Positions 1-64,000 are shown, counted from the first letter of the stretch. The stretch: 64,000 bases of DNA from an uncultured Actinomycetes bacterium (GCA_963724205.1 CAVRTK010000004.1:303830-367829), one strand, 5' to 3'. The notes: generated from the letters alone by a model not told the origin. Translations and numbers: made by a program.

Positions 1-104
1 CAGATCTCCCGCGCGCGTGCGTATGAGGACGACGTCGGTCTCACCCGCGCGGGCGGGGAGCATCTGCCCCGGCGCGAGGTCGCGAGAGGCGCAGACGTCG
101 TGGG

Positions 105-1166
105 TCACGCGGGCGCGCCCGCGTGCGCGGGCAGGCGCGCGTAGAGCGCGGCGGCGTTGTCGTGCAGGATCCTGCGCTTGAGCCCGTTGTCGAGCCGGTG
201 GGGCAGCGAGTCGGCGGGCGAGTCGAAGTCCCAGTGGGGGTAGTCGCTCGAGAAGCAGATCAGCTCGTCGGACTCCATCTGGCCGATCAGGGTCTCGAGC
301 TGCGCGGGCGTGAACTCCTCGATCGGCTGGCTGGCGAAGCGCATCTGGTCGCGGATGGTGCGGCTCGGCGCGCGCTTGACCCACGGCACCTCGTGGCGCA
401 GCTCGCTCCACTGCTGGTCCGCGTGCCACATGAGGTGCGGGACGTACGAGAAGCCGCCCTCGACCAGGATCACCTTGAGCTCGGGGTAGGACTCGAAGAC
501 GCCGTTGAAGATCAGCGAGACGGCCTGCGACATGAAGACCTGCGGCACCAGCGTGTGCCACTCCGCGTAGTAGCGGTGGAAGCCGAGCGCGGTCGGCGAG
601 TTGCCGCTGTGGTGGATGCCGACCACCAGGCCGTGACGCTCGGCGGCCGCGAAGATCGGGTGGTAGCGCGGCTGCCCGTAGGCCTGGTCGCCGATGTAGA
701 GCATCACCTGGACCATGCGCGGGTGGTCGGCCAGCCGCTCGATCTCGCGCACCGCGCCGTCGACGTCCCAGGGGTTGACGTGGATCGAGCCGAACAGCCG
801 CGGGTCGCGCTCGACCCAGTTCTCGATCTCCCAGTCGTTGTAGGCGGAGACGAGCGCGGTCTTGAACTCCACCCAGCTCTCCTGGGTGGACGACACGTTC
901 AGCCAGCCGGTCAGGATCCCCGCCTCGACGTCGTACAGGTCGAGCACCTGCTCGCGCAGCAGGCCGAGGTCGGACCCGCCGGGGCGGCCGTCGCCCGGCT
1001 TCGCGTCCGCGCGGTCGAGGCCGCCCGCCGTCGGCTGCGTGTAGGGCAGGCGCTCCTCCGGCTTCCAGCCGTAGTCCGTCACGTACTTGTGCCAGACGGA
1101 CGGCAGGTACGGAAGGAGGTCCTCGATGCCGGCGACCTCGTGGATGTCGGTGTCGATGACCGGCAC
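105..1166 (-). CDS. amidohydrolase family protein (amidohydrolase-2/ACMSD-like metal-dependent hydrolase)
   Basis: Single uninterrupted 353-aa ORF. Motifs such as HPRMVQVMLYIGDQAYG and GLVVGIHHSG are typical of TIM-barrel amidohydrolase-2 proteins. Confidence 0.8.
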   Translation of the reverse strand: MPVIDTDIHEVAGIEDLLPYLPSVWHKYVTDYGWKPEERLPYTQPTAGGLDRADAKPGDGRPGGSDLGLLREQVLDLYDVEAGILTGWLNVSSTQESWVEFKTALVSAYNDWEIENWVERDPRLFGSIHVNPWDVDGAVREIERLADHPRMVQVMLYIGDQAYGQPRYHPIFAAAERHGLVVGIHHSGNSPTALGFHRYYAEWHTLVPQVFMSQAVSLIFNGVFESYPELKVILVEGGFSYVPHLMWHADQQWSELRHEVPWVKRAPSRTIRDQMRFASQPIEEFTPAQLETLIGQMESDELICFSSDYPHWDFDSPADSLPHRLDNGLKRRILHDNAAALYARLPAHAGAPA

Positions 1167-1242
1167 GGCATCGAACCGTAGCCCATGTCTACCAACGCGG
1201 TCGGGATTCGCGGCTCACCGCTCGCGCTAGGGTCTGCGCGCG

Positions 1243-3297: not shown

Positions 3298-3896
3298 CTA
3301 GCCGCGTGACCGCCCGGCTTCGAGCGCCTCCCTGTCCTCGCGCCGCATCCGCACGCTGATGCCGCCCATCAGCGAGAACGCGCGCACGTGCACGCGCGGG
3401 GCGCCCGGCGGCAGGTCCTGGACCGGCACCCTGTCGTCGTTGCCGCCCATCAGGGCGAAGCCGGTCATCTCCACGTCGACGCCGGCCGGGACCACGACGC
3501 TGACGCCGCCCATGATCGCCACCGCCGTGATGCGCACCTCGGGGGACTCCATCTGGGCGTGGCGCAGGTCGATGTCGGCGCCGCTCATCAGTGACACCGC
3601 GGTGAGCTTGGGGCCGGCGCGCCAGCGCCCGCGCAGGTTGCCGCCGCCCATCACCGAGACGAGCAGCGGCGCGGCTTGCGGCCCGACGGCGCGACCTCGC
3701 GCCCGGTCGCCGTCGCGGGCAGGTCGGTGGTCAGCTCGGCCAGCTCGGCGGCGGTCCTGGCGGCGTAGGCGCTCTCGACCCGCTCGTCGAGCTCGTCGAT
3801 CGTCAGGCGCCCCTCCCCCGCCGCATCCCTCAGGCGTTCCGCGACCCGCTCACGATCGGCGTCCGAGACGCGCAGGTCGGGCGGGTCGGGGGTCAC
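3298..3896 (-). CDS. DUF1707 N-terminal domain plus LiaF/YvqF-like C-terminal domain membrane protein, frameshifted
   Basis: N-terminus VTPDPPDLRVSDADRERVAERLRDAAGEGRLTIDELDERVESAY is DUF1707. The C-terminal part repeats LMGG(I/V)SV motifs typical of the LiaF C-terminal domain. The GTG start at 3896 overlaps the polA stop (GTGA). A frameshift lies near 3650. Confidence 0.6.
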
Positions 3897-6726
3897 TTCG
3901 CCGCCAGCCAGTTGTCGCCGGTGCCGAAGTCGACGGCCAGCGGCGGGTCCAGGTCGTAGGCGGCGATCATCTCCCGGCAGACGATCTCGGCCGACCTGAT
4001 CGGCCTCGGCCTCGGGCGCCTCGAACAGCAGCTCGTCGTGGATCTGGAGGACGAGCCGCGCCTGGAGCCCCGCGTCGGCGACCGCCCGGCGCGAGCGGAC
4101 CATCGCCACCTTGATGATGTCGGCCGCCGTGCCCTGGATGACCGTGCTGATCGCCAGCCGCTCGCCGAGCAGGCGGGTCTGGCGCTGGCGAGCGCGCAGC
4201 TCGGGGATGCGGCGCATGCGGCCGAACAGCGTCTTGACGTAGCCGTTCTCCTTGGCGAACTCGATCGTCGACTCGATCAGCTCGTTGACCTTCGGGAAGC
4301 GGCCCAGGTAGCGGTCGATGAACTCCTGCGCCTCGTCCTGGGGGATGTCGAGCCGGTCGGCGAGCCCGTAGGCCGACAGCCCGTAGACGACGCCGAAGTT
4401 GAACATCTTCGCCTTCGACCGCAGCCCGGGGTCGACCTGGTCGGGGGTGACGCCGAACAGCTGGCCGGCGGTGGCCGCGTGCACGTCCTCGCCGCGGGCG
4501 AAGATGTCGCGCAGCACCTGCTCCTCGCTGATGTGGGCCAGGATGCGCAGCTCGACCTGCGAGTAGTCGGCGCGACACGAGCAGGTTGCCGGGCTCGGCG
4601 ATGAAGCACTCGCGGATCTCGCGGCCCAGCTCCGTGCGGATCGGGATGTTCTGCAGGTTCGGGTCGGTGGACGACAGGCGGCCGGTGGTGGTCGCCGTCT
4701 GGTTGAACGTCGTGTGCAGGCGGCCGGTCTTGTCGGAGATCAGCTCGGGCAGCGCGTCGAGGTAGGTCGACTTGAGCTTCGAGTACTCGCGCCACTCCTC
4801 GATCTTGGGGATGATCGGGTGCTCGGAGCGGATCGCCTGGAGCACGCGCGCGTCGGTGCTGAAGCCGGTCTTGCCGCGGCGCTTCTTCGTCAGGTCGAGC
4901 ACGTCGAACAGGACGTGCGAGAGCTGCTGCGGCGACCCGATCGTGAACGGCTCGCCGGCCAGCTCGTGGATCTCGCGACTCGAGCTCGGCGATGCGCGCC
5001 TCGACCTTGGTGGAGATCTCGGCCGAGCCGCCGCGTGTCGAGCTTCACGCCGTGGCGCTGCATCTCGACGAGCACGTCGACGAGCGGCAGCTCGACCTCG
5101 TCGAACAGCCGGGTCAGCCCCTCCTCCTCGAGCCGCGCGCGCTGGCGCTCGGCGATCACGCGGGTGACGACCGCGCGCTCGGCCAGCTCGTCGCCGCCCT
5201 CGACGTTGGCGGCCAGGCCCTCCTGCTCGGCCAGCTCGCTGCAGCGGGTAGCCGCGCCGCGCCGGGTCGATCAGGTAGGCGGCGACCATCGTGTCGTGCT
5301 CGAGCGGCGGCGCCTGCGACGGGTCCTCGGCGCTGGCGATCGTCTTCCAGTCGTGGGCGACGAGCGGGCGATCGCCCCAGGCGAGCGTGAGCGCGGCGAG
5401 GGTCTCGGCCTCACCGGTCAGGACCTCGGCGCCGCCGTAGGCCGCGAACCTGAGCGTCGGCGCTGCGCAGGCCGCCGTCCTCCTCGCCCAGCGCGAGCTG
5501 AGCGGGCTCGCCCTGCGGAGCGGGCGGGCTGGTCTCGGCCTGCGGCTCCTCGGCGGTCAGCGTCAGCTCGGCGTCGAGCTCCGCGTCCAGGCGCTCGAGC
5601 TCCTCCTCGGCGGCCTCGCCCTCGGCGAGCATCTCGGTCAGCTCCTCCGCGGCCGGCTTGTCGGCCGACGCGCCGGCGGCGGGCTCGGCGCCGTTGCTGC
5701 CGTCCAGCAGCGGGCGCTCGGCGGCGAGCGTCAGCAGCGTTCCGGTCAGGCGGCCGATCTCGGCGGCGGGGACCTCGTGAGCGGTGGCCTCGACGACCTC
5801 GCGAGGCGCGCTCGCGCGGGGCGGCCTCCTCGGCGTCGCCCATCGCCTCCTCCAGCCGGCGCAGCGGGTCGCGCAGCTCGAACTCGCGGAACACCTCGCG
5901 CAGGCGCGCGCGGTCGGGCTCGCGGGCGATCGCGTGATCCAGGTCGACCTCGACGTCGACGTCGCGGACCGCGGTCGCGAGCTTCATCGACATGCGCGCG
6001 TCGTCCGCGTGGTTGGTCAGGTTCTCCTTGCGCTTGGCGCCCGGAGATCTCGTCGATCGACGACAGCACGCCCTCCAGCGACGCCGAACTTCTGGAGCAG
6101 GTCGGACGCGGTCTTGTCGCCGATGCCGGGGACGCCGGGGATGTTGTCGCTGGTGTCGCCCTTCAGGCCGTAGAAGTCGGGGATCAGCTCGGGGCCGATG
6201 CCGTAGCGGTCGATCACGGCCTGCTCGTCGTAGATCTTCGTCTCGGTGATGCCGCGGCTCGTGGCCATCACCTTCACGCCGTCCTCGATCAGCTGGAACA
6301 GGTCGCGGTCGCCGGTGACGACCATGACCTCGATGCCCTTCTCCCGGGCCTGCTTCGTGACGCGTGGCGATGACGTCGTCGGCCTCGTAGCCGGGGACCT
6401 TCACGTTCGTGTAGCCGAACGCGTCGACCAGCGGCTGCATGTGCGGCCACTGCTCGCTGAGCAGGTCGGGGCGCTCGCGCCGGCCGGCCTTGTAGTCCGT
6501 GGAGATCTCGTCGCGGCCGGACATGCCGGCGTCCCAGACGACGAGCGTGGGCTTCGGGCCGTACTCCGTGAGGATCTTCACGAGCATCGACGCGAAGCCG
6601 AAGATCGCGTTGGTCGGGAAAGCCCTTCGAGGTGGCGATCGTCTCGGGGAGCGCGAAGAAGGCGCGGTAGACGAGGCTGTTCCCGTCGATCAGGAACAGC
6701 TCGCGCGGGGATGCTTCAGGCGGCAC
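3893..6726 (-). CDS. polA: DNA polymerase I, with at least five frameshifts
   Basis: 5'-3' exonuclease N-terminus (MPPEASPRELFLIDGNSLVYRAFFALPE; GYEADDVIAT), Klenow-like middle, and polymerase motifs (RRAAKTINFGLVYG-like FGVVYGLSAYGL; LQIHDELLFE) are distributed over at least six ORF fragments in three frames. The C-terminal end ...DFGTGDNWLAAK* is reached only after a 1-nt correction near 3995. Confidence 0.85.
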
Positions 6727-7129
6727 GCGACGATCTTAGGCAGGGCACGGTTGCCGTGGTTGGCGCGTGCGTCGGACGCTTGCCCGCCCGGCACCCTCGT
6801 TCCTCGGGTGGACTCCCGGTCGGACAAGGTCCGACGCCCGCGCCTGAGCTCCGGCCTTCCCGTCCACGGCCCCAGCCGGCGGGCTCCGGCGTGCCCGGTC
6901 GGGCTTTGGCTGAGCTGGGCTAGTGGCGGGCGGGCGTGTGGACCGGCAGGCCGGCGCGCTCGGCGTCGGAGACCGTCAGCGGGCGCATCACGCCCCAGTC
7001 GCGCAGGGCGCTGCGGGCCGCATCCGCGTCGCGGACGCGCGCGAAGAAGCCCGGCACCGGGCGGCCGCGGACTGGCGGGCGAGGCAGCGGGCGCGCGCCG
7101 GGCTTGCGGCGGCGGCAGGCGAGCGGCTC

Positions 7130-7400
7130 GAGCGGCCGATCGGAAGACGACCACGACGTTCGGCAGCGACTGCACGTCGCAGAGGAACGGCAGCGGGGAG
7201 CGGGCGTTGCGGACGTACAGCCAGCCGTAGGTCTCGGCCTCGTCGCCCGGGAACGGCTGGGTCCACTCGAACTCGTGCGAGAACGGGAAGCGGAGCGTCT
7301 CGCCGCCCTCGCGGCGGCGGGTGTCGACGGCCGCGACCACGACGTCGTCGCGGTCGATGACGAGCGGCTCGGTCAGGAGCGACGGGTAGGACACGACCAT
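7130..7400 (-). CDS. hypothetical protein (conserved-looking ~90-aa segment)
   Basis: ATG at 7400, then MVVSYPSLLTEPLVIDRDDVVVAAVDTRRREGGETLRFPFSHEFEWTQPFPGDEAETYGWLYVRNA..., which is non-repetitive and protein-like. Flanking frames are Arg/Pro-rich junk. The end is uncertain. Confidence 0.3.
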
Positions 7401-7716
7401 CCGGTGCGGCTCCAGGCGCAGCACCGGCGACCGGCGCGAGAGACCGCGCAGCGCCGCGGCGGCAGGCGAGCGCGAGCGTCGCCTCCGGAGCCGGCGGGCG
7501 CTGCGGCTCGGCGACCTTGAGGTCATCGACCCCGATCGCCGCGGCTTCGCGGAGCTGATGGTCCATACGGACGCCATCGGGCCGCCCCGGCAAGGAGTCG
7601 AGCGGCCCGCCGAGAAGCTCGGCGGAATGGCCAGCTTCTGGCCGAAAACCCGTCTATATGATTGGCCGACCGGCCAGCGGAACCTCTCTCCCCCGCTCGG
7701 TCCGGACTCTCGCCCC

Positions 7717-9160
7717 ATGGCCTCGATCCCCAGCGCACAGTTCTCGCTGACGCTTCGCGTCGTGCTCGACCGGCGTCCCGGCGCGCTCGCGCGCCGTGGC
7801 CAACGCGATCGGCGACGCCGGCGGGTCGATCGGCGCCGTCGACATCATCGACCAGCGCGAGCACGAGACCGTCCGCGAGCTCACCGTCGACGCCACCGAC
7901 TCCGACCACTGGGACCGGATCGTCGCCGCGGTCGAGCAGGTCGCCCGCGGCCAAGCTGCTGGAGACGACCGACCGCACGCTCGAGCTGCACCGCGGGGGC
8001 AAGCTCTACACCGGCATGAAGAGCGGGATCAAGACCCGCGACGACCTGTCGATGGCCTACACGCCCGGCGTCGCGCGCGTGTGCCTGGAGATCGAGGCCG
8101 ACCGCGAGAAGGCCCACGAGTACACGATCAAGAAGAACTCGGTCGCCGTGGTGTCCGACGGCACCGCGGTGCTCGGCCTGGGCGACATCGGCCCCGAGGC
8201 GGCGATGCCGGTCATGGAGGGCAAGGCGGTCCTGTTCAAGGAGTTCGCCGACGTCGACGCCTTCCCGATCTGCCTGGACACCAAGGACCCGGACGAGATC
8301 GTGGCGATCGTCAAGGCCCTCGCCCCCACGTTCGGCGGCATCAACCTCGAGGACATCTCCTCCCCGCGCTGCTTCGACATCGAGAACCGGCTGATCGAGG
8401 AGCTCGACATCCCCGTCTTCCACGACGACCAGCACGGCACCGCGATCGTCGTGCTGGCCGCCCTCCTGAACGCCTGCCGCCTGACCGGCCGCCGCATCGA
8501 GGACCTGCGCGTCGCGATGGTCGGCGCGGGCGCCGCCGGCGTGGCCGTCGCGCGCATCCTGATGAGCTCGGGCGTCACCGACATCGTCGCCGCCGACCGC
8601 CGCGGGGCGATCCACCAGCGACCGCCCGGACTACGGCGACGGCACGATGAACACGCCCAAGGTGTGGCTGGCCGAGCACACCAACGGCGAGCCGCCGCGG
8701 CGGCACGCCGGCCGAGATCCTGGAGGGCACCGACCTGTTCATCGGCCTGTCCGGGCCGGGCATCGTCACCGCGCGGGACCTGGAGCGCATGAACGCCGAC
8801 CCGTTCGTGTTCGCGATGGCCAACCCCACGCCCGAGGTCGCGCCCGAGGAGGCGCAGCCCTACGCGCGCGTGATGGCCACCGGGCGCTCGGACTACCCGA
8901 ACCAGATCAACAACGTGCTCGCCTTCCCCGGGATCTTCCGCGGCGCCCTCGACGTGCGCGCTCCGAAGATCACCGAGGAGATGAAGCTCGCCGCCGCCCA
9001 CGGCATCGCGTCGGTCGTGCCCGACGACGAGCTCTCCGAGGACTACATCGTCCCGAGCGTCTTCAACCGCGACGTGAGCCAGGCAGTGGCGGCGGCCGTA
9101 GCCCATGAGGCCGAGCGCAGCGGAGTAGCGCGCGGCGCGGCCACGCTGACCACGCACTAA
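7717..9160 (+). CDS. NAD(P)-dependent malic enzyme with N-terminal ACT domain, frameshifted
   Basis: ACT-like N-terminus ([25 protein letters not shown]...[17 protein letters not shown]), then malic-enzyme core ([20 protein letters not shown]; [25 protein letters not shown]; [18 protein letters not shown]; [12 protein letters not shown]) and C-terminus ([19 protein letters not shown]). Spread over four ORF frames. Confidence 0.85.
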
Positions 9161-9172: not shown

Positions 9173-10084
9173 TTGAAGGTCGCCGTGACCGGCGCCACCG
9201 GATCGATCGGACGGGCGATCGTCGCAGCGCTGCAGGAGCGCGGCGACGAGGTCGCTGTCCTGTCGCGCGACCCGGGCAAGGCGACCGAGGCGCTCGGCGC
9301 CGACGTCGACGCGTACGCCTGGGCCGAGCCGGAGTCGAGCCCGGCGCCCGCCGAGGCGCTGGCCGACGCCGACGCCGTGATCCACCTGGCCGGCGAGCCC
9401 GTCGACCAGCGCTGGAACGACGAGTCGAAGAAGCGCATCCGCGACTCGCGCGAGCTCGGCACGCGCAACCTGGTGGCCGGCATGAAGGGCGCGGGCCCGC
9501 GGCTGCGCACGCTGGTCTCCGCGTCGGCGTCCGGCTACTACGGCCCGCGCGGCGACGAGCGGGTCGACGAGTCAGAGCCCGCCGGTGACGACTTCCTGGC
9601 CGACGTCGTCGTCCGCTGGGAGCGCGAGGCCCAGGCCGCCGAGGAGCACGGCATCCGCGTCGCCAACCTGCGCACCGGCATCGTCCTGACGCCCGAGGGC
9701 GGCGCGCTCGGGCGGATGCTGACGCCGTTCAAGCTCGGCGTCGGCGGCCCGATCGCGGGCGGCCGCCAGTACATGCCGTGGATCCACGTCGACGACGTCG
9801 TCGGCGCCTACCTGTTCGCCCTCGACAACGACGAGGCGAGCGGGCCGATCAACCTCTCGGCCCCGGAGCCGGTGACCAACAAGGAGTTCTCGAAGGTGCT
9901 CGGCAAGACCCTGCACCGGCCCGCGTTCGCGCCCGTGCCCGCGCTCGCGATCAAGTCGCTCTACGGCGAGATGGCGACGATCGTCGTGAACGGCGTGCGC
10001 ATGGTGCCCGCGCGGCTCGAGGAGCTCGGCTACGAGTTCCGCCGGGCCGATCTGGGCGGCGCGCTCGAGGCCGCTGTCGGCTGA
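9173..10084 (+). CDS. TIGR01777/YfcH-like NAD-dependent epimerase/dehydratase family protein (DUF1731 C-terminus)
   Basis: Intact 303-aa ORF with TTG start. KVAVTGATGSIGRAIVAAL Rossmann motif, and the overall layout is YfcH-like. Confidence 0.85.
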   Translation: MKVAVTGATGSIGRAIVAALQERGDEVAVLSRDPGKATEALGADVDAYAWAEPESSPAPAEALADADAVIHLAGEPVDQRWNDESKKRIRDSRELGTRNLVAGMKGAGPRLRTLVSASASGYYGPRGDERVDESEPAGDDFLADVVVRWEREAQAAEEHGIRVANLRTGIVLTPEGGALGRMLTPFKLGVGGPIAGGRQYMPWIHVDDVVGAYLFALDNDEASGPINLSAPEPVTNKEFSKVLGKTLHRPAFAPVPALAIKSLYGEMATIVVNGVRMVPARLEELGYEFRRADLGGALEAAVG

Positions 10085-11016: not shown

Positions 11017-11724
11017 GCCGCCCCCAGGTACGCGGCCTGGACCTCGGGGTTCTCGCGCAGCTTGGACGACTCGTCGGTGACCGCGATGTGACCGGTCTCG
11101 AGCACGTAGCCCCGAGCGGAGACGTCCAGGGCGAAGTTCGCGTTCTGCTCGACGAGCAGGATCGTCGTGCCCTGCTTGTTGATCTCGGCGACCGTCTCGT
11201 AGATGCGCTCGACGAGGATCGGCGCGAGGCCCATCGACGGCTCGTCGAGCAGGAGCAGCTTGGGGTTGGCCATCAGCGCCCGGCCGATCGCGAGCATCTG
11301 CTGCTCGCCGCCGGACATGGTCCCGCCCTTCTGGTTCTCGCGCTCCTTGAGGCGCGGGAACAGGTCGAACACGCGGTCGAGGTCGTCGTTCACCCTGTCG
11401 TCACGGCGCAGGAACGCACCGAGTTCGAGGTTCTCGCGCACGGACATGCGCTGGAAGACCTTGCGTCCCTCGGGCGACTGCGAGATGCCGAGACGCACGA
11501 TGTCGGCCGCCGGCGTGGCGCCGATCTCCTTGCCCTCGAACTTGATCGATCCGAGGCGGGGCGGCGTGAGGCCGGAGATCGACCGCAGGGTAGTGCTCTT
11601 GCCCGCGCCGTTGGCGCCGATCAGCGTGACGATCTCGCCCTCGTTGACCTCGATCGAGATCGCCCTTCAGCGCCTCGATCGACCCGTAGAAGGTGTGGAT
11701 GTCGTGCAGCTCGAGCATCGCCAC
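11013..11724 (-). CDS. livF: branched-chain amino acid ABC transporter ATP-binding protein LivF, frameshifted
   Basis: MLELHDIHTFYGSIEALKG... Walker A GANGAGKST (frame-shifted), signature MSGGEQQMLAIGRAL, and LLLLDEPSMGLAP. Two ORF fragments. Confidence 0.85.
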
Positions 11725-11727
11725 GGC

Positions 11728-12558
11728 TCAGCCCTGCTTCCCCAGGTAGGCCTCGACGACGCGCGGGTCGGCGCGGACGTCGTCGGGCAGACCCTCGGCG
11801 ATCTTCTCGCCGTGGTCGAGGACGGTCAGCCGCTCGGACACCCCGAGCACGACCTTCATGTCGTGCTCGATCAGGAGGATCGTCAGGCCCTGCTCGTCGC
11901 GCAGGCGGATCATGAAGTTCTTGAGGCGGTCCGACTCCTGCGGGTTCATGCCGGCGGTGGGCTCGTCGAGCAGCAGCAGCTTGGGCTCCGACACCAGCGC
12001 GCGCGCGATCTCCACGCGGCGCTGGTCGCCGTAGGAGAGGTTGACCGACGACCTCGTCGAACACGCGCTTCTGGAGGCCCACGAAGTCGAGCATCTCGCG
12101 CGCCAGCTCACGAGTCTTCCACTCCTCGCGCGAGGTCATCGGCGGCCGGATGATCGACCGGAACAGGCCCGCCCTCATGCGCGAGTGGTAGCCGACCATC
12201 ACGTTCTCGACGGCTGTCATCGTCCCGAACAGGCGGATGTTCTGGAACGTGCGCGCCACCCCGAGCGCCGTGATCTGGTCGGGCCGGCGCCGGGTGATGT
12301 TCTGGCCCTCGAAGGCGATGAGGCCGACCGTCGGCTTGTAGAGCCCGCTGAGGATGTTGAAGAACGTGGTCTTGCCCGCGCCGTTCGGCCCGATGATCGA
12401 CACGATCGAGCGCCGCGGGATCGCGAACGACACGTCGTTGACGGCGATCAGGCCGCCGAAGCTGCTTCGTGATCGCTGACCGCCTCGAGGATCGGCGCGG
12501 CTTCCGTCGCCGCTCCAGGCTCGCTCGCGCCGCCGACCGCTGTGGATCCACTCGTCAT
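11728..12558 (-). CDS. livG: branched-chain amino acid ABC transporter ATP-binding protein LivG, frameshifted
   Basis: IIGPNGAGKTTFFNILSG Walker A; LSYGDQRRVEIARAL signature; LLLLDEPTAGMNP. Its ATG overlaps the livM stop (ATGA). Three ORF fragments. Confidence 0.85.
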
Positions 12559-13757
12559 GCGCGCGTCTCGAACACTGCCTCAGTACCGGTGCCGACGCCT
12601 TCCTCGAACTCGAGCTTTCGTCTTCGTTCGGGCAGGAGGCCCTCGGGGCGCAGGACCATCATCACCACGAGCAGGAAGCCGAACACGCCGAAGCCGAGCT
12701 GGCTCGCGTCGATCGTGAGGCCCGAGATCCTTCAGGAGCTTGGGACCCGTGTCCTGGATGATCTGGCGGTCGATGTAGGAGAGCACCGCGGCCGCCCGAA
12801 AACGACGCCCCAGATCGATCCGAGCCCGCCCAGGATCACCATGGCCAGGATCAGGATCGAGAACGAGAACTCGAACTGCTCGGCGTTGACGGTCTTGTTG
12901 TACGCGCCGAGGAACGCGCCGGCCATGCCGCCGAAGCCGGCGCCGGCGGCGTACGCCATCAGCTTGGTCTTGACCGCCGGGATGCCCATGCTCGTGGCGG
13001 CGACCTCGTCCTCGCGGATCGCGATCCAGGCACGCCCGAGGCGCGAGTCGCGCAGCCGGATGTTGCAGAACAGCACGAGCAGCACCATCGCGAACGCGAG
13101 CCAGTACCACGGTCTGAGGTTGAAGTCCTGGATCGGCAGCGTGCCGTAGCCAGGCAGCGCCGGGATGTCGATCGGCGTGATGCCCTTCTTGCCGTTCGTC
13201 AGCTCGTAGCCGAAGATGTTGATCTGCTCGCCGTTGGTGGCGATCACGCGGATGATCTCGCCGAACGCGAGCGTCACGATCGCGATGTAGTCGCCGCGCA
13301 GCCGCAGCGTCGGCAAGCCGATGAGGATGCCCGCGATCGCGCAGATCACGACGGCGGCCAGGATGATCAGCAGGAAGTTGAGGTGGATGCCCGGCTGCCC
13401 CTGCGCCTCGGTGCCGGCGAAGATGTCGATGCCGCCCTCCGACCCCTCCTTGACGAAGTAGGCCGATCCGAACCAGCCCATCGCGTACGCACCGAACGCG
13501 TAGAACGCGACGTAGCCCAGGTCGAGCAGGCCGGCGAAGCCGACGACGATGTTCAGCCCGAGCGCCATCACGATGTAGGCGAGTGCGATCGTCGACGTGT
13601 TGACGACGTTCGCGGTCAGCGGGAAGAACAGCGGCAAGATCGCGACGAAGGCCGATGAGCACCCCCGCGAACACACGTGCCGGCGATCCGGCGCTGGCGC
13701 TCGGTCGCGCATGAAGCGCGGCGTCAGGCTGGTGCGCGCCCGCGCGATGGCGGTCAT
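12555..13757 (-). CDS. livM: branched-chain amino acid ABC transporter permease LivM, frameshifted
   Basis: Long hydrophobic permease (IALAYIVMALGLNIVVGFAGLLDLGYVAFYAFGAY...). The C-terminus (...LEFEEGVGTGTEAVFETRA*) is in a second frame. Confidence 0.8.
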
Positions 13758-14757
13758 CCGGCCTCCCTCGTCTCCTCGCCAATCAGTCCGCGCGGCCGGA
13801 AGACCATGATCAGGATCAGGTAGATGAACACGACCATGGGCGTCCAGGTGGCGTCCCAGCGGTCATCGTTGATCACCTGGATGCAGCCGATGATCAGGCC
13901 GCCGAGCACGGCGCCCTTGAGGTTGCCGATGCCGCCCATGACCGCGGCGGTGAACGCGATCAGGCCGGCCTGGAAGCCCTGGAAGAAGTAGACGTCGTTC
14001 TGGTACAGCGCCCACATCAGGCCCGCGGCGCCGGCGAGCAGTCCGCCGAGCATGAACGTGACGCTGATCGTCGTGTCGACATTGATGCCCATCAGGCGTG
14101 CCGCCTCGGGATCCTGCGCGGTGGCGCGCATGGCCTTGCCGAGCCGGCTCCGGGTGACGAACGCCGTCAGCGCGAGGAGCAGCGGGACGGCCACGCCGAA
14201 CGCGATCGCGTCACCGTGGGTGATCGGGACCTCGAAGATCGTGAAGAACGACTCGCGAGTTGTCGATCGGGTCGCCGACGGAGTTGTGCTGCCCGCTGAG
14301 CCACAGCTGGCCGGCGTTGACGAGGATGAACGAGAACCCGACCGCCGTGATCAGCGGCGCGAGCTTGGGCGCGTTTCTCAACGGGTCTGTACGCGATCCG
14401 CTCGATCATCGTGTTGATCGCTCGCGCAGCAGATCATCGCGATGAGAGGGCTGCCACGCACGCCAAGCAGCAGCCCGATCGGCCCGGTCAGCCATGTCAG
14501 CACGGCCGCCGATGTGGCAGTGCCGATCATGAACAGGTCGCCGTGGGCGAAGTTGATCAGCTCGACGATGCCGTAGACCAGCGTGTAGCCGAGCGCGATC
14601 GATCGCGTAGATGGCGCCGTTCGACAGCCCTTCCTTGATGTTCCTCGCGAGGTGCGAGAGGTCGTCGTTCGGGTCCTTGATGTCGTCGATGCCCCAGAGG
14701 ACCGGCATCGCCAGCAGCAGGACGATCAGGCCGTAGGTATCGAGAAACTACCGCATG
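13754..14757 (-). CDS. livH: branched-chain amino acid ABC transporter permease LivH, frameshifted
   Basis: C-terminal half intact (GINVDTTISVTFMLGGLLAGAAGLMWALYQ...). N-terminal half (PVLWGIDDIKDP...GLSNGAIYA) is in other frames; an MR-stop near 14752 suggests an indel at the start. Confidence 0.8.
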
Positions 14758-14871
14758 CGTCGCCCACATCCGGCGATGCCCGGGTCGGGCGCGATGCCTG
14801 CGGCGGTAATGGATGCGGCTTCCAAGTAGGGGTGGGAAGACGTGGGTGTGTTGTAAGTGTCCTACGGAGAC

Positions 14872-14896: not shown

Positions 14897-14921
14897 ATTC
14901 CGTTCAGGTCAGCGTTGGCTC

Positions 14922-52091: not shown

Positions 52092-52976
52092 TCAGTCGAT
52101 CCCGAGGCGGTCGAGCAGGCCCTCGTCCGCGCGCCAGCCCTTGCGGACGCGGACGCTCAGGTCCAGGTGCACGCGCCGGCCGGTCAGCTTCTCGATCTCC
52201 TGACGGGCGGCCGTGCCGATCGCGTGCACCATCTGGCCGCGCTTGCCGATCAGGATGCCCTTCTGCGACTCGGTCTCCGCCCACAGGCGCGCGACCACGA
52301 GCAGCAGCCCGTCGTCGCGCTCCTCGACCTCGTCGACCTCGACCTCGACGGCGTGCGGCAGCTCCTCGCGGGTCCGCATCAGCACCTGCTCGCGCACCAG
52401 CTCGGCCAGCCGGACCTCCTCCGACATGTCGGTGCGCTCCTCGGGCGGGTACAGGTACTCGCCCTCGGGCATGCGCGACGTCAACTCGTCGACGATCTCG
52501 GCGACCCCGGCGCCGCGCAGCGCGCTGACGGGGTAGATCTCGGCGTCCAGGTCGAGCTCCGCCGCCTGCTGGAGCACCTCGACCGTGCGCGCGGTGTCGA
52601 GCAGGTCGACCTTGTTCAGCGCGATGACGGCAGGCACGCCGGCGTTGCGGATCGCAGCGGCGATGAAGCGGTCGCCGGGCCCGACGCCCTGCTGGCCGTT
52701 CAGGACGAACAGCGCGGCGTCGGACTCGCCCAGCTCGCGCTCCATGCGACGTTGCATCCGCTCGGTCAGCGGGTCGCGCGGGCGCTGAACGCCGGGCAGG
52801 TCGACGATCACCAGCTGGTGGTCGTCGGTGGTCGCGATGCCGCGGATGGCGCGCCGGGTCGTCTGCGGGCGGTTCGAGACGATCGCGACCTTCTCCCCCA
52901 CGATCGCGTTCAGGAGCGTCGACTTGCCGACGTTCGGGCGGCCCGCGAGCGCGACGAAGCCGGACCGGACGCTCAC
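52092..52976 (-). CDS. era: GTPase Era
   Basis: GFVALAGRPNVGKSTLLNAIVG (G1); DLPGV (G3); NKVD (G4); C-terminal KH domain (GILIGKRGQMVHAIGTAARQEIEKL). Probable GTG start overlapping the ybeY 3' end. Confidence 0.85.
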   Translation of the reverse strand: MSVRSGFVALAGRPNVGKSTLLNAIVGEKVAIVSNRPQTTRRAIRGIATTDDHQLVIVDLPGVQRPRDPLTERMQRRMERELGESDAALFVLNGQQGVGPGDRFIAAAIRNAGVPAVIALNKVDLLDTARTVEVLQQAAELDLDAEIYPVSALRGAGVAEIVDELTSRMPEGEYLYPPEERTDMSEEVRLAELVREQVLMRTREELPHAVEVEVDEVEERDDGLLLVVARLWAETESQKGILIGKRGQMVHAIGTAARQEIEKLTGRRVHLDLSVRVRKGWRADEGLLDRLGID

Positions 52977-53365
52977 CCGAGCTCCTCCATCACGCGGTCC
53001 TGTAGGGCGAGCATCTCGCCGTCGTCGGTCTCGTGGTCGTAGCCGCACAGGTGCAGGACGCCGTGGACGACCGCCTCGTCCAGGCGCTCGGTGTGCTCGG
53101 GGCAGATGACGACGTCGCCGAGCTCGCGGGGGCCGGGCGCCGGGCCGGTCTCGTCGATCGGGAACGACAGGACGTCGGTCGGAGCGTCCCGGCCGCGGTG
53201 CTCGGCGTTCAGCCGCCGGATGGCGTCCTCGTCCACGAAGTCGACCGCCAGATGGCCGTCGCGCACGCCCGCGGCGGCGAGCGCGGCGCGGGCTGCTCGC
53301 TCGAAGCGCTCCGGGTCGGTGCCGTTCAGGCGACCGCCGTCGTTGATCTCGATCTCGAGCGACAC
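52973..53365 (-). CDS. ybeY: rRNA maturation endoribonuclease YbeY
   Basis: Intact 130 aa. HGVLHLCGYDHE is the YbeY zinc-binding HxxxHxxxxxH motif. Confidence 0.85.
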   Translation of the reverse strand: MSLEIEINDGGRLNGTDPERFERAARAALAAAGVRDGHLAVDFVDEDAIRRLNAEHRGRDAPTDVLSFPIDETGPAPGPRELGDVVICPEHTERLDEAVVHGVLHLCGYDHETDDGEMLALQDRVMEELG

Positions 53366-53370
53366 GCCGC

Positions 53371-54354
53371 TCAGCGCGGGCGGCGCTGCTGGGCGGCGCG
53401 CAGCTCAGGAGTGTGCTGCGACTGATAGGAGTCGTAGGCCTCGACGATGCGCTGCACGAGCTTGTGGCGCACCACGTCCTCGCCGCCGAAGCGGACGAAG
53501 TCGATGCCCTCGACCTCGCCCAGGATGTCGCCGATCACCACGAGGCCGGAGCGCTGGTTCTTCTCCAGGTCGATCTGGGTGATGTCGCCGGTCACGACCA
53601 TCTTCGAGTTGAAGCCGAGCCGGGTCAGGAACATCTTCATCTGCTCGGGCGTCGTGTTCTGCGCCTCGTCGAGGATGATGAACGAGTCGTTGAGCGTGCG
53701 GCCGCGCATGTACGCGAGCGGCGCGACCTCGATCACGTTGCGCTCGAGGTGCTGGTTGACCTTCTCCGGCTCGAGCATGTCGTAGAGCGCGTCGAACAGC
53801 GGGCGCAGGTACGGGTCGACCTTGGCCATCAGGTCGCCGGGCAGGAAGCCGAGCCGCTCGCCGGCCTCGACGGCCGGCCGGGTCAGGACGATGCGGTTGA
53901 CCTCGCGGCGCTGGAGCGCGGCGACCGCGCAGGCCACGGCCAGGAACGACTTGCCGGTGCCCGCCGGGCCGATGCCGACGGTGATCGTCTCGCGGCGGAT
54001 CGCGTCGACGTAGCGCTTCTGGTTGACGGTCTTCGGCGCGACCTTGGTCGAGCGGTGGCGCCAGATCACGTCCTCCAGGATCCGGCTGGGCGACTCGTGC
54101 GCGTCGAGCGCGCTGGTGATCGCCTCGATCGTCCCGGGGATGATCTCGTGGCCCTGGCGGACCAGGTCGGACAGCTCGCGGACGACGGTCTCGGCCATCC
54201 CGACCTCGGCGTCGCCGCCGTCGATCGTCAGCACGTTGCCGCGCAGGAACACGTCGGCGTCGAGGTGGCCCTCGAGCGACTTCATCACGACGTCGCCCGG
54301 ACCGGCCAGCTCGGTCGCGACTTCGTTGGGGAGCTCGAGTTGGCGACGGGCCAC
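53371..54354 (-). CDS. phoH: PhoH-family ATPase
   Basis: ITVGIGPAGTGKSFLAVACAV (Walker A); FIILDEAQNTT (Walker B); conserved C-terminal region. The GTG start overlaps the yqeY stop by 1 nt. Confidence 0.85.
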   Translation of the reverse strand: MARRQLELPNEVATELAGPGDVVMKSLEGHLDADVFLRGNVLTIDGGDAEVGMAETVVRELSDLVRQGHEIIPGTIEAITSALDAHESPSRILEDVIWRHRSTKVAPKTVNQKRYVDAIRRETITVGIGPAGTGKSFLAVACAVAALQRREVNRIVLTRPAVEAGERLGFLPGDLMAKVDPYLRPLFDALYDMLEPEKVNQHLERNVIEVAPLAYMRGRTLNDSFIILDEAQNTTPEQMKMFLTRLGFNSKMVVTGDITQIDLEKNQRSGLVVIGDILGEVEGIDFVRFGGEDVVRHKLVQRIVEAYDSYQSQHTPELRAAQQRRPR

Positions 54355-54796
54355 TAGGCGGTCAGGAGCTCCTTCACGAGGGCGCTCACGCGCTTGCCGT
54401 CCGCGCGGCCCTGGATCCGCGGCATGACCTGGGACATGACCTTGCCCATCTCCTTCGGCGACGAGGCGCCGGACTCCGCCACGACGTCGCCGACGATCGC
54501 GCGCAGCTCCTCGTCGGAGAGCTGGGCGGGCAGGTACGCCTCGATGATCGCCGCCTCGCGCTGCTCGCCGTCGGCCAGGTCCGTCGCGCGAGGCCTCGCG
54601 GTAGGCGTCTGCGGCCTCCAGGCGGCGCTTGCGCTCGCGCTGGAGCACGGCGACCTCGTCGGCCTGGCTCCCGCTTGCCTCCTTGTGCGCCTTCTGGAGC
54701 TCGTTCGAGATCAGGCGCAGAGCGTTCACGCGCTCGCGGTCGCCCGCGCGCATCGCGTCCTTCGTGTCGGTCTGTACCTGTTCGAGCAGCGACATG
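54355..54796 (-). CDS. yqeY: GatB/YqeY-domain protein, frameshifted
   Basis: MSLLEQVQTDTKDAMRAGDRERVNALRLISNELQKAHKE...VAVLQRERKRRLEAADAYREA; C-terminus ...ALVKELLTA* in a second frame. Confidence 0.75.
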
Positions 54797-54809
54797 TGCA
54801 CGATCAATT

Positions 54810-55238
54810 CTATGCGGGCGGGCGGCAGGCGCTGCACAGGCCGGTGACCACCAGCTCGGCCCGCTCGGGGGCGAAGCCGTGACGCTCGGCCGACGCGAGG
54901 GCGGCGGCGGTGTCCAGGTCCAGGTCGACGTCGATCACCCGGCGGCAGCTCGAGCACACCAGATGGTGGTGGTCGTCGGTGTGCGGGTCGTACAGGACGG
55001 CCCCGGGGGCGACCGTCACCCGGCGCGCGAAGCCCAGGTCGGCCAGCACCTCGAGCGCCGAGTAGACCGTCGGCACCGCGACGTTGGGGAACTCCGTGGC
55101 CACCTCGGTGGTGACCTCGTCGACGCTCGCATGGCGGTCCAGCCGCCGCAGGGCGCGCGCGATCACCAGGCGCTGCGGCGTCACGCGCATGCCGTTGTCG
55201 CGGAGGGCCTGGGTGAGGGCTGTGTCGGTCGCGGACAT
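54810..55238 (-). CDS. fur: Fur-family transcriptional regulator
   Basis: RVTPQRLVIARAL (DNA-binding helix); HHHLVCSSCRRVIDVD and CSAC (structural Zn Cys pairs); metal-site His/Asp cluster DPHTDDHHH. Confidence 0.85.
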   Translation of the reverse strand: MSATDTALTQALRDNGMRVTPQRLVIARALRRLDRHASVDEVTTEVATEFPNVAVPTVYSALEVLADLGFARRVTVAPGAVLYDPHTDDHHHLVCSSCRRVIDVDLDLDTAAALASAERHGFAPERAELVVTGLCSACRPPA

Positions 55239-55242
55239 CGTG

Positions 55243-55277
55243 TTAGGCAACCCTTATCCTAAACTATTAGTTATAGT
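55243..55277. promoter_or_regulatory. divergent promoter/operator region between fur and the VIT transporter gene
   Basis: The only AT-rich stretch in the neighbourhood. TTAGG(n10)CCTAA inverted arms at 55243–55262; AACTA-T-TAGTT palindrome at 55262–55272; TATAGT -10-like hexamer at 55272–55277, 6–7 nt before the VIT ATG (leaderless layout). Confidence 0.35.
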
Positions 55278-55793
55278 GTGTCCATGACGACTCTGGCGAG
55301 GACCCTGCTCGCCGGCTGGTACGGAGCCGACGACCGCAAGCGTCTGCTGCAGGTCGTGCAGCCCGGCCTCGTGGGCCTGATCGACGGGACGATCTCGACG
55401 CTCGCGCCGCTGTTCGCGACCGCCTACATCGCCGGCTCGCACGCCGCGCTGCTGGTGGGCCTGGCGGCAGCGCTCGGCGCCGCGATCTCGATGGGCATGT
55501 CCGAGGGGCTCTCCGACGACGGCGAGCTCACCGGCCGCGGGTCGTCGCTGGGCCGCGGGCTGATCACGGGCGGCGGCACGTTCCTCGGCGGCACGTTCCA
55601 CACGCTGCCGTTCCTGATCGACGACGTGAGCACGGCGCTGGCGCTGGCCTACGCGATCGTGTCGGTCGAGCTGTTCGCGATCGCCTTGATTCGCAAGCGC
55701 TTCCTGAACGTGTCGCTGCGCAGCTCGCTGATCCAGGTGACGCTGGGCGGCGCGATCGTCGCGCTGACCGGCTTCGTGGTCGGGCACGCGTAG
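55278..55793 (+). CDS. VIT1/CCC1-family Fe2+/Mn2+ transporter
   Basis: GLIDGTISTLAPLFATAYIAGS...GLSDDGELTGRGS...; five hydrophobic helices. The start is the GTG at 55278 or the ATG at 55284. Confidence 0.75.
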   Translation: MSMTTLARTLLAGWYGADDRKRLLQVVQPGLVGLIDGTISTLAPLFATAYIAGSHAALLVGLAAALGAAISMGMSEGLSDDGELTGRGSSLGRGLITGGGTFLGGTFHTLPFLIDDVSTALALAYAIVSVELFAIALIRKRFLNVSLRSSLIQVTLGGAIVALTGFVVGHA

Positions 55794-55943
55794 CGGCGCG
55801 CGCTCGTTTCACTCAGCACGGCCTCCCGCGGAGCGCCGGCGGCAGAGTCGCTCCCGGCCGCCCGGGTGGGCGCTTTTCGTCTCGTGTATGGAGACGAAAG
55901 GCGCCCAGCGGTCTGATCGAGGCGCGGGCACTAGGGTCCCGGC

Positions 55944-56631
55944 ATGGCGCTCGGCGGGATCAAGGTCGCGACCTTCGACTGCTACGGCACGCTCGTCGAC
56001 TGGGAGGGCGGCGCGGCGTCGTTCCTCTACGACCTGTGCATGCGGCACGGCGACCCCTCCCCTCCCCCCGGCCGTGAGCTGCGGGACCGCTGGGAGGCGA
56101 TCCAGTTCGAGATCGTCTCCGGCGCCGACTACCGGCCCTACAAGCAGGTGCTGGCGGAGTCGCTGCAGGCCTGGATGGAGGAGCGCGGGCTGGAGTACGA
56201 CCCGGTCGAGGGCGACGCCCTCGTGCGCGCGATCCGCTCCTGGCAGCCGTTCCCGGACACCCGCCCGGCGCTCGACGCGCGCCCGCGAGGCCGGCCTGCG
56301 GCTGGTGATCCTCTCGAACACCGACCGCGACATCATCGAGCACACGGTCCGCCACATCGGGGTCCCGTTCGACGACGTCGTGACCGCCGAGGACTGCGGC
56401 GCCTACAAGCCCGCCGACACAGTCTTCGCCCAGGCGCTCGAGCGCATCGGGGAGCCGCCGGACGCGGTGCTGCATGTGGCGTTCGGCTTCAAGTACGACC
56501 TGCCGCCGGCCGAGCGCGCCGGCATGCGCACGGCGTGGGTCAACCGCCATGCCGAGCGGCCGCCCGGCGACGCCCGCCGCGACCACGAGTGGCGCGACCT
56601 GTGGGGCCTGGCGGAGCTGGCGACGGGCTGA
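55944..56631 (+). CDS. HAD-superfamily hydrolase (haloacid dehalogenase type II-like), frameshift about 56285
   Basis: KVATFDCYGTLVDWEG (motif I DxYGT); ...LRLVILSNTDRDIIE (motif II S/T); GAYKP (motif III K); C-terminal part in a second frame. Confidence 0.75.
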
Positions 56632-60666: not shown

Positions 60667-61029
60667 CTACGCGTCCCACGCCTGGAGGCCGCGCTGGCGC
60701 GCGATGCGCCCGTCGCGGAGCTCTGCCGTGGTCATGCACAGGACCTTGTTCCCGTCCGGGTAGGTGCAGTCGATCGTGTACGACAGGCGGTCCCCATCGA
60801 CGACGATGCCGCCGACCTCGTGGGTCATGTCGCGGCTCGCGACGTCGGCGAGGAAGTCGCCGATCTGCTCGCGGCCCTGGATGACGAGCGGCTTGCTCGG
60901 CGGGTTGAGGCTGTCGACGACCTCGACGGTCGCGTCGTCGGTGAACAGCTCGACCTGGGCGGCCGCGTTGCGCTCCTCGATCGCGCGCTTGAGCGCCTGT
61001 GCATCGAACGTTGTTGCGGCGGTGGCCAT
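60667..61029 (-). CDS. SnoaL-like / NTF2-family protein
   Basis: ATG at 61029 preceded by AGGAGG. MATAATTFDAQALKRAIEERNAAAQVELFTDDATVEVVD...GNKVLCMTTAELRDGRIARQ, 121 aa. The ORF track extends N-terminally into non-protein-like sequence. Confidence 0.6.
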   Translation of the reverse strand: MATAATTFDAQALKRAIEERNAAAQVELFTDDATVEVVDSLNPPSKPLVIQGREQIGDFLADVASRDMTHEVGGIVVDGDRLSYTIDCTYPDGNKVLCMTTAELRDGRIARQRGLQAWDA

Positions 61030-61167
61030 GAGGGACCTCCTGGTTTCGCATCGGCCCGGGCCGGTCCCGGGCGCCTGTTCCCCACCATGGACCGCCTGCG
61101 TCAAACCACCGTCAAGCTGCCCGTCAAACCCCTGTCCGCCCGCCTGGCCCGGCGTTAGGGTGGCGTC

Positions 61168-64000
61168 ATGGTTCGCGTCCGGCTCCTGGGAAGCCTCGCG
61201 ATCGAGGTCGACGGCCGGGCGGTGGAGCCGCCGGCCAGCCGCCGCGCGCAGGCGCTGCTGGGCTGGCTCGCGCTGAATCCCGGCATGCACGCGCGCGGGC
61301 AGGTGGCCGGCCGCTTCTGGCCGGACGTGCTCGAGACGAGCGCCCGCCAGAGCCTGCGCAGCGCCGCCTGGTCGCTCCGGCGCGCGCTCGGCCCGGACGG
61401 CGAGGGCGCGCTGCGCGCGCTGCGGGCGGAGATCGGCCTCGACGGGGTCGCCACCGACCTGGCCGAGTGGCAGGAGCACGTCGCGGCCGGCCGGCTCGAG
61501 GAGGCGCTGGCGCTCGAGCGCGGCGAGCTGCTCGCCGGGCTCGACGACGACTGGGTCCACGACGCGCGCGAGGAGCACCGGGGGCGGCTCGGACACGTGT
61601 TGGCCCGTCTGGGCGACGAGGCCGAGGCGGCCGGCGACCTGGAACGCGCGGTCGAATGGACGCGGCGCTGGGTCGCGCTGGACGGGGTGGCCGAGGCCCC
61701 GGCGCGTTCGCTGATGCGGCGGCTCGCCGCGGCGGGCGACCGCTCGGCTGCCCTGGCCGTGTACTCCCGCCTGCGTGAGCGCATGCGCCTGGAGCTGGGC
61801 GTGTCGCCCTCCGCCGAGACCCGCGGCCTGGCCGACGAGCTTCGCGAGGCCGGCGCGGAGGCGGCCACGGCCGGGGCGCCGGAGAGGTCCGCCGACGCCG
61901 ACCCCTGGTGGGCCGCACGGAGGAGCTGCGCAGGCTGGAGGCGCTCCGCCGCGGCGGGCGCGGCGGAGTCGTCGTGCTGAGCGGCGAGGGCGGGATCGGC
62001 AAGACGCGGCTGGCCACCGAGCTGCTGCGCCGCGCCGGCGCGGCCGGCGCCCGGACGTCCGTCTGCGCGGCGCTCGACATCGGCGGAGCCGCTCCGTTCT
62101 CCCTGTGGGCGGAGATGCTGCGCGAGCTCGTGCGCGACCTCCCCGCTCCGCCTTCCGGCGCAGCCTGGCCCGGCGACCTCGCGCGCCTGGTGCCGGAGCT
62201 CGGCGCTCCCGCAGCCCCCGTACCGCCCGAGCTCGAGCGCGCGCGCCTGTTCGAGGCGACCGTGCAGCTCTTCGAGTGGGCGAGCAGCGGCCGGTCGCTG
62301 CTCGTGCTGGTCGACGACCTCCACCTGGCCGACCAGGCGAGCATCGAGCTGCTGGCCTACGTCGGGCGGCGCACGCCCGGCATGGACGCGGTGATCGTCG
62401 CCACCCGGCGCGACGTCCCGCGCCGCGCCGAGGTGGACGCCGCGATCGACGCGCTGGCCCGCCGGGGCGCGCTGCTCGACGACCTTCGCGTCGACCCTCT
62501 TACAGCCGAGCACGTCGAGGAGCTCGTGCGCACGGTCGCGGAGCTGGACGACACGGAGGTGGCGCGCGTCGCCGCCGTGGCCGAGGGCAACCCGCTGCTG
62601 GCAGTGGAGAGCGCGCGGGCGGCGGAGAGCGGCGAGCACGGGCCGCCGGCGACGCTGCGGGCGAGCGTGCGCGCACAGCTCGCGACCCTGGACGACGACG
62701 CTCGCGACTTGGCGGAGCTGCTGGCAGTCGCCGGGCGGGAGCTCAACCGCCGTGAATGCTCCGCGGCCTGCGACGGCGACGCCGAGCCGGCCGAAGCGGC
62801 GACCGCGGCGGCGGAGTGCGGGCTGCTGAGCGCCGCGGAGGGACGGATCGGCTACCGCCACGGGCTGCTCCGCGAGGCGGTCTACGAGCAGCTGCCCGAC
62901 CCGCGGCGGGCCTGGCTGCACGAGCGTCTGGCCGACGGCCTGGAGGCGTCGGCCGCGCCGGGCGCCGGGCTCCGCGACGCCGAGGTGGCCCGCCATCTGC
63001 TCCTGGCCGGGAACGGCCCACGCGCCGTCGAGCATCTGCGCCGCGCGGCCACCCACGCGCGCGGGCTCGCCTGTCTGCCCGAGGCAGCCGAATACCTGCG
63101 GCAGGCCGTCGAGATCGCCCCCGACGACGCCGATTCCTGGCTCGAGCTGGCCGAGATCGAGGCGTGGGGCGAGCGGAGCGAGGCGTCCGAGGAGGCGTTC
63201 GGGCGCGCGCTTGCGCTGCTCGATCCCGGGCCGGCCGAGCCGCGCGTCGACGCCTGGCTGCGGCGGGCGCGCTGGTTCCGCGGTCCCACCTGCTCCCCGA
63301 CGAGCTCGCTCGCGTCGTACCAGCGGGCGCTCGAGCTGATGGACGCCGCCGGGCTGGACGCGCCGCGCGAGCGAGCCGAGGCGCTCGCCGGCTCCGCGTG
63401 GTGCCACGCGGCGGGCGGCGACCCGGGGCTGGTCGACTCGTTGCTCGTGCGCGTGCACGAACTGGTCGGCGACGAGCGCGAGGACGACATGCTCGTCCAC
63501 GACATCGGCGCGGCCCGGCAGTTCGCGCTGATGCGGAGCGGGCGCTTCGAGGACTCGTACGCGCCCGGCATCGCCGCCGGCGAGGCCGCGCAGCGCGCCG
63601 GCAGGATGGACATGGCCTACGGGGCGTGGGGCAACATCGCCGTCGCGGCAGCCGCGGGCGGCGAGCTCGACCGCGCTCTGGAGTTCGCCGACCGGTCGCT
63701 GCACTCGGTGCACGGGACCTGCACGCCGATCGAGTGCGGGGTCCTCTCCGCCCGCTGCCAGATCCTGGCCCGCTCGGGCCGCCTGGACGAGGCGCACACG
63801 ACCGCCGAGTCCGAGCTGGCCCTGGCCGACCAGCTCGACCGGCCCGACCTGGTCGGCGCGGCCCACTACGACCTGGGGCTGGTGGCGCTCGCCGCGAAGC
63901 GCTGGGACGAAGCGGCCGGGCTGATCGCTTCCGCGCTCGCGGGCGGCGGCCGGTTCAGCCGCCCGCTGGCCCGCCTGGCGCGCGCGGAGGCGCTGGCGCG
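61168..64000 (+). CDS. AfsR/SARP-family transcriptional regulator (winged-helix plus BTAD, NB-ARC ATPase, TPR), 3'-truncated by the window end; frameshift about 61915
   Basis: MVRVRLLGSLAIEVDGRAVE...RRAQALLGWLALNPG (SARP winged helix); BTAD (RFWPD...SLRSAAWSLRRAL); Walker A VLSGEGGIGKTRLA; LVLVDDLHLAD (Walker B); Ala/Leu-rich TPR-like tail. Confidence 0.8.

Follow-up and report, generated by a model that had tools for sequence, protein, structure and literature searches.

We examined a stretch of 64,000 nucleotides (nt) of DNA from an uncultured Actinomycetes bacterium (GCA_963724205.1 CAVRTK010000004.1:303830-367829), hereafter the window, in which polA, an SNF2-family helicase gene, several trp genes and many other conserved genes are interrupted by frameshifts. 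From comparison with intact orthologues in close relatives we infer, with high confidence, that these frameshifts are an artefact of the sequence or of its consensus, made up of more than 100 spurious single-base insertions, and the genes are almost certainly intact in the organism itself. The extra bases are nearly all of one size and one direction, are absent from relatives, leave the downstream reading frames under full constraint and vary in density with position on the contig.

Extra bases in conserved genes

The window is genuine chromosomal DNA from a Thermoleophilia-like actinobacterium of high G+C content, 72% overall and ~0.9 or higher at third codon positions. The named homologues nearest to its polA, SNF2 and trpD come from Thermoleophilaceae and Solirubrobacterales metagenome-assembled genomes, while for GTDB species representatives the top identity was 73% among the matches listed. 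Look-ups of the exact protein sequence for two apparently intact genes yielded no entry. As a comparison set we used six syntenic loci on five metagenome contigs (L001-L006), whose synteny with the window spans about 1-17 kb and 19-40 kb, which have 83-92% nt identity to it in the better-conserved genes, and in which each compared gene was called intact, without frame breaks. Two further loci (L087 and L088) served as relatives for the yqeY-phoH-ybeY-era block, with a PhoH identity of 81-82%, the best among the matches listed.

Using a codon-usage Viterbi segmentation with six frames and a non-coding state, and with in-frame stops forbidden, we obtained 173 coding segments for the window (median, 221 nt), with the frame switching on the same strand 1.9 times per kb. 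When six close relatives (L001-L004, L087 and L088) were segmented with this model, the median was 650-1050 nt and there were 0.3-0.7 switches per kb, a rate that approximates that of gene boundaries, and the window is therefore abnormal by the standard of its own close relatives. When stitched together, its segments translate to continuous PolA, SNF2, malic enzyme, LivFGMH, substrate-binding protein (SBP), TrpF/B, HtrA, TgpA, DUF58 and MoxR products.

We then located the shifts with a custom frameshift-aware dynamic programme, which aligns a relative's protein with the window DNA and allows +1, -1 or +2 bases. Plain tblastn was dropped for this purpose because its gapped high-scoring segment pairs crossed the shifts and were uninterpretable, and DNA-level pairwise alignments of the more divergent genes (DUF1707, htrA, tgpA and trpA) contained compensating indel noise and were excluded from the counts. 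In 28.3 kb of homologue-verified coding sequence, the frameshift-aware alignment identified 107 events that break the frame, or 1 per 264 nt. By type there were 91 '+1', 8 '-1' and 4 '+2' events (91/103 being '+1'), plus one in-frame stop, so that there are over ten insertions for each deletion (insertion bias, p = 6e-19), and the mixture of ±1 shifts described in an earlier note on this DNA is not what we find. All frame-breaking indels were of 1 nt, or rarely 2 nt, with other gaps against the relatives being in-frame multiples of 3. Several of the '-1' and '+2' calls may represent two neighbouring insertions, while those at 3664, 23579 and 28367 look like true 1-nt deletions. When matching sites were searched for these insertions in the compared relatives (83-92% nt identity), none carried any of them. 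The genes and their events are as follows:

3896..6723, minus strand: polA (DNA polymerase I), ~940 amino acids (aa) and full length after skipping 11-12 single extra bases
6941..7557, minus strand: hyp204, orthologue of a 204-aa protein of L002, 2 extra bases
7717..9151, plus strand: malic enzyme, 4 extra bases at about 7795, 7943, 8619 and 8692
9173..10081, plus strand: NAD-dependent epimerase, no frameshift
11019..16214, minus strand: livF, livG, livM, livH and SBP, with 1, 2, up to 5, 4 and 5 events, respectively
19729..22372, minus strand: trpA, trpB and trpF, with 8, 8 and 1 extra bases, respectively; trpA also has an in-frame TAG at 19897
22448..28081, minus strand: htrA, tgpA-like transglutaminase, DUF58 and moxR, with 4, 12-13, 5 and 7 events, respectively
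28183..30869, plus strand: SNF2-family helicase, the most heavily hit gene, 18-19 events
31378..35095, minus strand: SPFH/Band-7 gene and qNOR, one shift each, at ~32055-32068 and near 33010 (Viterbi and translation only)
35153..39062, minus strand: trpC, trpD, trpG and trpE, with 1, 0, 4 and 2 events, respectively
39103..47840: polysaccharide-modification cluster of CmcI, TylF, further methyltransferases, GT8-like, flippase, GT4, GT2 and EamA genes
52095..56622: era, ybeY and phoH, intact; yqeY, '+1' at about 54585; HAD hydrolase, '+1' at about 56274

Skipping the extra bases restores full length in all genes, and the corrected products are 79-94% identical in amino acid sequence to their closest relatives, or 57-79% in the case of the liv and SBP genes, where placement of the events is less exact. 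Stitched PolA shares 87% identity with intact homologues of 942-944 aa across 100% of their length, and 84-90% with intact metagenome proteins of 894-944 aa across its own full length. Alignment of polA to L002 at the DNA level showed 12 one-base insertions with no frame-breaking deletion, and the dynamic programme returned 11 '+1' events. Likewise, SNF2 has 92% aa identity to an intact 895-aa orthologue (P0121/L005), with the stitched protein 85-89% identical to intact 891-901 aa proteins, and its DNA alignment contained 16 or more '+1' events together with two other lesions, 1 nt lost at 28367 and 2 nt gained at 28421. The malic enzyme matches the intact L002 orthologue at 423/477 aa with four '+1' events.

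These results bear out the earlier note in its central observation, that many conserved genes are readable only by frame hopping, since Viterbi segmentation, stitched translations and frameshift-aware alignment to intact orthologues all recover it. Its minimum counts for polA (at least 5 shifts) and SNF2 (at least 8) are exceeded, and the malic enzyme, all four liv genes, SBP, trpA/B/F/C/G/E, moxR/DUF58/tgpA and htrA, which it had listed as broken, each contain at least one event, with SPFH and qNOR each showing a single switch by Viterbi and translation only. The genes it had read as intact are also so here, namely trpD, TylF, CmcI, GT2, the flippase, era and ybeY, together with the amidase and pfkA by Viterbi and translation only. 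In total, no event was found in the DAO-type oxidoreductase gene (1243-2343), hyp95, small92, the epimerase gene, trpD, TylF, phoH, ybeY, era or the gene at 47864-48469.

We next compared codon-position divergence behind the shifts with that in unbroken genes. Downstream of the first shift, divergence from relatives at codon positions 1/2/3 was 0.095/0.062/0.251 (4993 codons), and in unshifted genes it was 0.102/0.090/0.292 (1013 codons). As the two profiles match, the apparently disabled frames are as constrained as working genes. The earlier note had also pointed out that essential genes are affected and that their frames recover downstream, which holds for polA and the trp genes, where we count 4-10 events per kb. 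The only in-frame stop in ~6700 aligned codons is the trpA TAG at 19897, where the relative has GAG, which suggests that the written sequence also contains some substitution errors.

Local context and density of the insertions

For the 72 '+1' events with 60-nt flanks that matched the relative at ≥45 positions, we located the extra base by maximising matches. Thirty-nine of these well-anchored insertions were uniquely placed, being unlike both neighbours, 14 extended a run (to length 2 or 3) and 19 were ambiguous. As a null we put random bases at random sites of the same genes and followed the same procedure, under which 38% of insertions would extend a run, compared with the observed 19% (14/72; p = 9e-4). 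Homopolymer runs are therefore depleted among the insertion sites, which is the opposite of what the earlier note had proposed. Of the two homopolymer sites it had cited, the one near 32055 is a real shift, located at the SPFH gene start in a GGGGCCCGGGCC stretch and belonging to a run-associated minority, whereas that near 32160 falls within the first segment of SPFH, ~25 nt from a switch at 32187/32188 that, by Viterbi and translation only, resembles a junction with the upstream gene and not a shift.

The inserted base was G or C at 32 of the 39 unique sites (82%), as composition predicts, with cGc and gCg the commonest contexts. The bases flanking the insertion were identical to each other in 19/39 cases against 31% expected (p = 0.02), and the codon phase of the insertions was 17/13/9, a weak bias. 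Inspection of the 39 uniquely placed sites for a common motif revealed none. We also ran tRNA and Rfam scans of the window, meant to check non-coding genes for insertions, and these returned no RNA genes.

The events are very unevenly spread, ranging by gene from 0 to 9.8 per kb (chi-square across genes, p = 0.003). Density was highest at 19.7-30.9 kb (5.7 per kb), followed by 3.6-8.7 and 11.6-15.6 kb (3-4 per kb), with few events at 31-35 kb and at most one in 38.2-45.9 kb. In the verified genes at 47.8-57 kb it was about 0.5 per kb, and over most of 38-64 kb it was ≤0.5 per kb, the clean stretches past 38 kb being supported by full-length Pfam matches and Viterbi and partly by close homologues. 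None were detected at 8.7-11.6 kb; at the mean rate, the absence of events from the 2969 nt between 8692 and 11661 has a probability of P = 1e-5, the homologue check in this interval covering the epimerase and small92 only. Altogether, density varies more than tenfold, and the multi-kb stretches without detected events have probabilities between 1e-5 and 1e-13. G+C content as a driver of event density was not supported (Spearman rho = 0.26, p = 0.21). Essential genes (polA and the trp genes) have 4-10 events per kb, and density follows contig position, not gene function or dispensability.

Origin of the insertions

The pattern that we looked for as the mark of an artefact comprises 1-nt lesions absent from relatives, undiminished constraint and a density that tracks position, and we observed all three. 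In our interpretation, the insertions would have been introduced at a sequencing, consensus or assembly step, through an error process that would insert single bases, mostly G or C and mostly unlike both neighbours, at a very uneven rate averaging about one per 264 coding nt. An under-polished long-read consensus, low coverage or a mixed-strain consensus are the candidate steps, and uneven density is expected when consensus quality hinges on local read support or partial polishing. Gene-fragmenting indels have been reported in long-read assemblies (PMC12007338, PMC9262707), and the collapse of differing alleles into one consensus creates INDEL errors (PMC8445201). The long-read and low-coverage indels treated with Kastor (PMC12007338), like those of nanopore R9/R10 (PMC9262707), resemble ours in that single-base indels split conserved genes, correction against relatives restores these genes, and error density varies along the contig. 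They differ in being reported as largely homopolymer-associated and as including many deletions, whereas in the window 91/103 events are '+1', only 19% extend a run and the runs are ≤3 in length.

Several points count against this interpretation. The technical origin of the insertions is deduced from sequence comparison, not from reads. The signature is also atypical of the best-known indel-prone platforms, since it is homopolymer-depleted (14/72 vs 38%) and almost deletion-free, whereas the errors of nanopore, 454, Ion Torrent and HiFi sequencing are described as mainly homopolymer-associated (PMC12007338). Likewise, a test of whether both alleles of mixed strains had been written side by side found no excess of mismatches beside the insertions. 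We rejected a homopolymer-type platform error (nanopore R9, 454, Ion Torrent or HiFi residuals), as runs are depleted (maximum length 3) and deletions scarce. The preference of the earlier note for systematic indel error over decay is thus upheld by lesions of one size and one direction that are absent in relatives, while the typical homopolymer long-read type of error that it had in mind is not.

A variant of the artefact explanation, possible but rather doubtful, is that reads of two or more co-occurring, closely related strains were merged into a mixed-strain consensus and that, where these strains differ, a graph or partial-order consensus put both alleles side by side, which would give '+1' events only and rarely in homopolymers. 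This would account for the insertion-only direction, the depletion of run extensions and the patchiness, and is in keeping with the excess of identical flanking bases (19/39 vs 31% expected), with the finding of two related polA-bearing contigs together in one sample (3300066659) and with reported INDEL errors from allele collapse (PMC8445201). In that report, on Trypanosoma brucei Lister 427, apparent frameshifts in conserved open reading frames (ORFs) were gone once haplotypes had been separated; this is, however, a diploid eukaryote of known heterozygosity, whereas strain mixing in the window is conjecture. Allele or strain collapse could nonetheless be a source of non-homopolymer insertions and patchiness. 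The inserted base can be read as a synonymous alternative of its neighbour at 26/39 sites, yet chance would give roughly 50-55% (an estimate, not a computed value) and the excess is probably small. The mismatch frequency at ±1 was 0.09, compared with 0.08 in the random-insertion null, insertion phase is only weakly biased (17/13/9), and the shared core genes trpD, epimerase, era and phoH are clean, all of which speak against mixed strains. Bases inserted uniformly at random, in silico or through a file or processing error, would also produce one-size, one-direction, motif-free lesions of the kind seen in a simple simulation. We consider this very improbable, because it predicts 38% run-extending events and even density, whereas we observed 19% (p = 9e-4) and a more than tenfold heterogeneity, and because the inserted bases match the G+C-rich local composition (32/39 G or C).

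Explanations in which the extra bases are real fare no better. Bacterial pseudogenes typically show a deletion-biased mix of lesion sizes, nonsense mutations and relaxed constraint, Mycobacterium leprae being the example of pseudogenes formed by reductive evolution. The window is like such a genome in that many conserved genes are interrupted by frameshifts, these being present in the written sequence together with one nonsense codon (trpA, 19897). It is unlike one in lacking the deletion bias, mixed sizes, stops, relaxed constraint and compositional drift. Its lesions are nearly all '+1' (91 '+1', 8 '-1', 4 '+2' and 1 stop) rather than a mixed spectrum, constraint is not relaxed downstream of the shifts, polA and the trp genes are still full length at 80-94% aa identity despite 4-10 lesions per kb, there is no A+T drift at 72% G+C and ~0.9 or higher third-position G+C, and density tracks contig position, not dispensability. 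We therefore judge genuine mass pseudogenisation through genome decay to be highly unlikely. Scarcely credible is the view that the extra bases are real and are bypassed in expression, by genome-wide programmed +1 frameshifting or by editing that deletes one nucleotide from the transcript, and we hold it equally hard to believe that the lineage has a highly efficient, motif-independent +1 bypass or transcript-editing system serving roughly half of the genes in parts of its chromosome. Programmed +1 frameshifting is known from bacterial prfB and, at genome-wide sites, from Euplotes, and it shares with the window the uniform +1 direction and the fully conserved downstream frames that recoding would need. 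Those systems use a defined shift site, with positions conserved in relatives and one site per gene, whereas the 39 uniquely placed sites in the window lack, on inspection, a shared slippery or stimulatory motif and show no marked preference for a codon phase, none occurs in relatives of 83-92% nt identity, and density varies by more than tenfold within one contig irrespective of gene. Moreover, with up to 19 sites per gene a full-length product would be vanishingly rare, judging from general knowledge of frameshifting efficiency, and to our knowledge no genome-wide +1 bypass or editing system of this kind exists in bacteria.

With spurious consensus insertions as the favoured explanation, the frameshifts themselves are not a real feature and hold no biological novelty, and their importance lies in sequence quality. 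About 1 in 260 coding bases is spurious, rising to 1 in 175 in the worst block, so that gene calls, pseudogene counts, completeness estimates and 'novel' short ORFs are unreliable in the window without polishing or frameshift-aware reading, and this unreliability probably extends to the whole assembly. The insertion-only, homopolymer-avoiding and patchy signature helps to diagnose the pipeline step that failed, and homopolymer-focused correction would miss most of the errors.

Neighbouring genes and other regions of the window

Between SNF2 and trpC there are ~4.2 kb (30932-35095) that contain qNOR, a Cys-rich protein, the SPFH/Band-7 protein and a small downstream ORF, with few frameshifts. 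In the relatives L003 and L004 trpC follows directly after SNF2, which makes this region a lineage-specific insertion within a split trp neighbourhood. The polysaccharide-modification cluster at 39103-47840 is nearly shift-free, with shifts only in GT4 at about 45988 and 46081 (Viterbi), as judged from full-length Pfam matches and Viterbi, with a relative's homologue for TylF and a close-homologue check that is partial. It is almost insertion-free, unlike the neighbouring core genes, and is absent from L087/L088, in which trpE is directly followed by the orthologue of the 47864-48469 gene and then era-ybeY-phoH. Likewise, an extra membrane-protein gene of ~200 aa (10413-11022, minus strand), located between the 92-aa small ORF and livF, has no counterpart at the same position in L001/L002.

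Towards the end of the window, codon usage gave no clear coding frame for 1.7 kb (57219-58888). This stretch adjoins a secreted Ig-like protein (weak Big_7 match, 57229-58143, minus strand), with a reprolysin-like/TSP3 metalloprotease (58885-60333) downstream of it, and may represent either a surface protein of unusual composition or a gene with heavy damage. The last gene is a regulator:

61160-64000, plus strand: BTAD-AAA_16-TPR regulator (SARP/AfsR-like), runs past the window end

Its BTAD and AAA_16 parts lie in separate frames, with a '-1-type' switch near 61902 that may reflect two insertions close together, a true deletion or the junction of two genes.

We also considered two long open frames on the minus strand, 61155-63866 (903 aa) and 43676-46843 (1055 aa), as intact polA and SNF2, and rejected them on account of Pfam matches that were marginal or absent. 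The true genes lie elsewhere, polA at 3896-6723 and SNF2 at 28183-30869, while the 903-aa frame overlies the BTAD-AAA_16-TPR regulator and the 1055-aa frame the methyltransferase/EamA/GT4 region. Both are spurious, mostly antisense or out-of-frame products of the 72% G+C and not genes, as long open frames on the wrong strand are common at this G+C content combined with strong third-position G+C.

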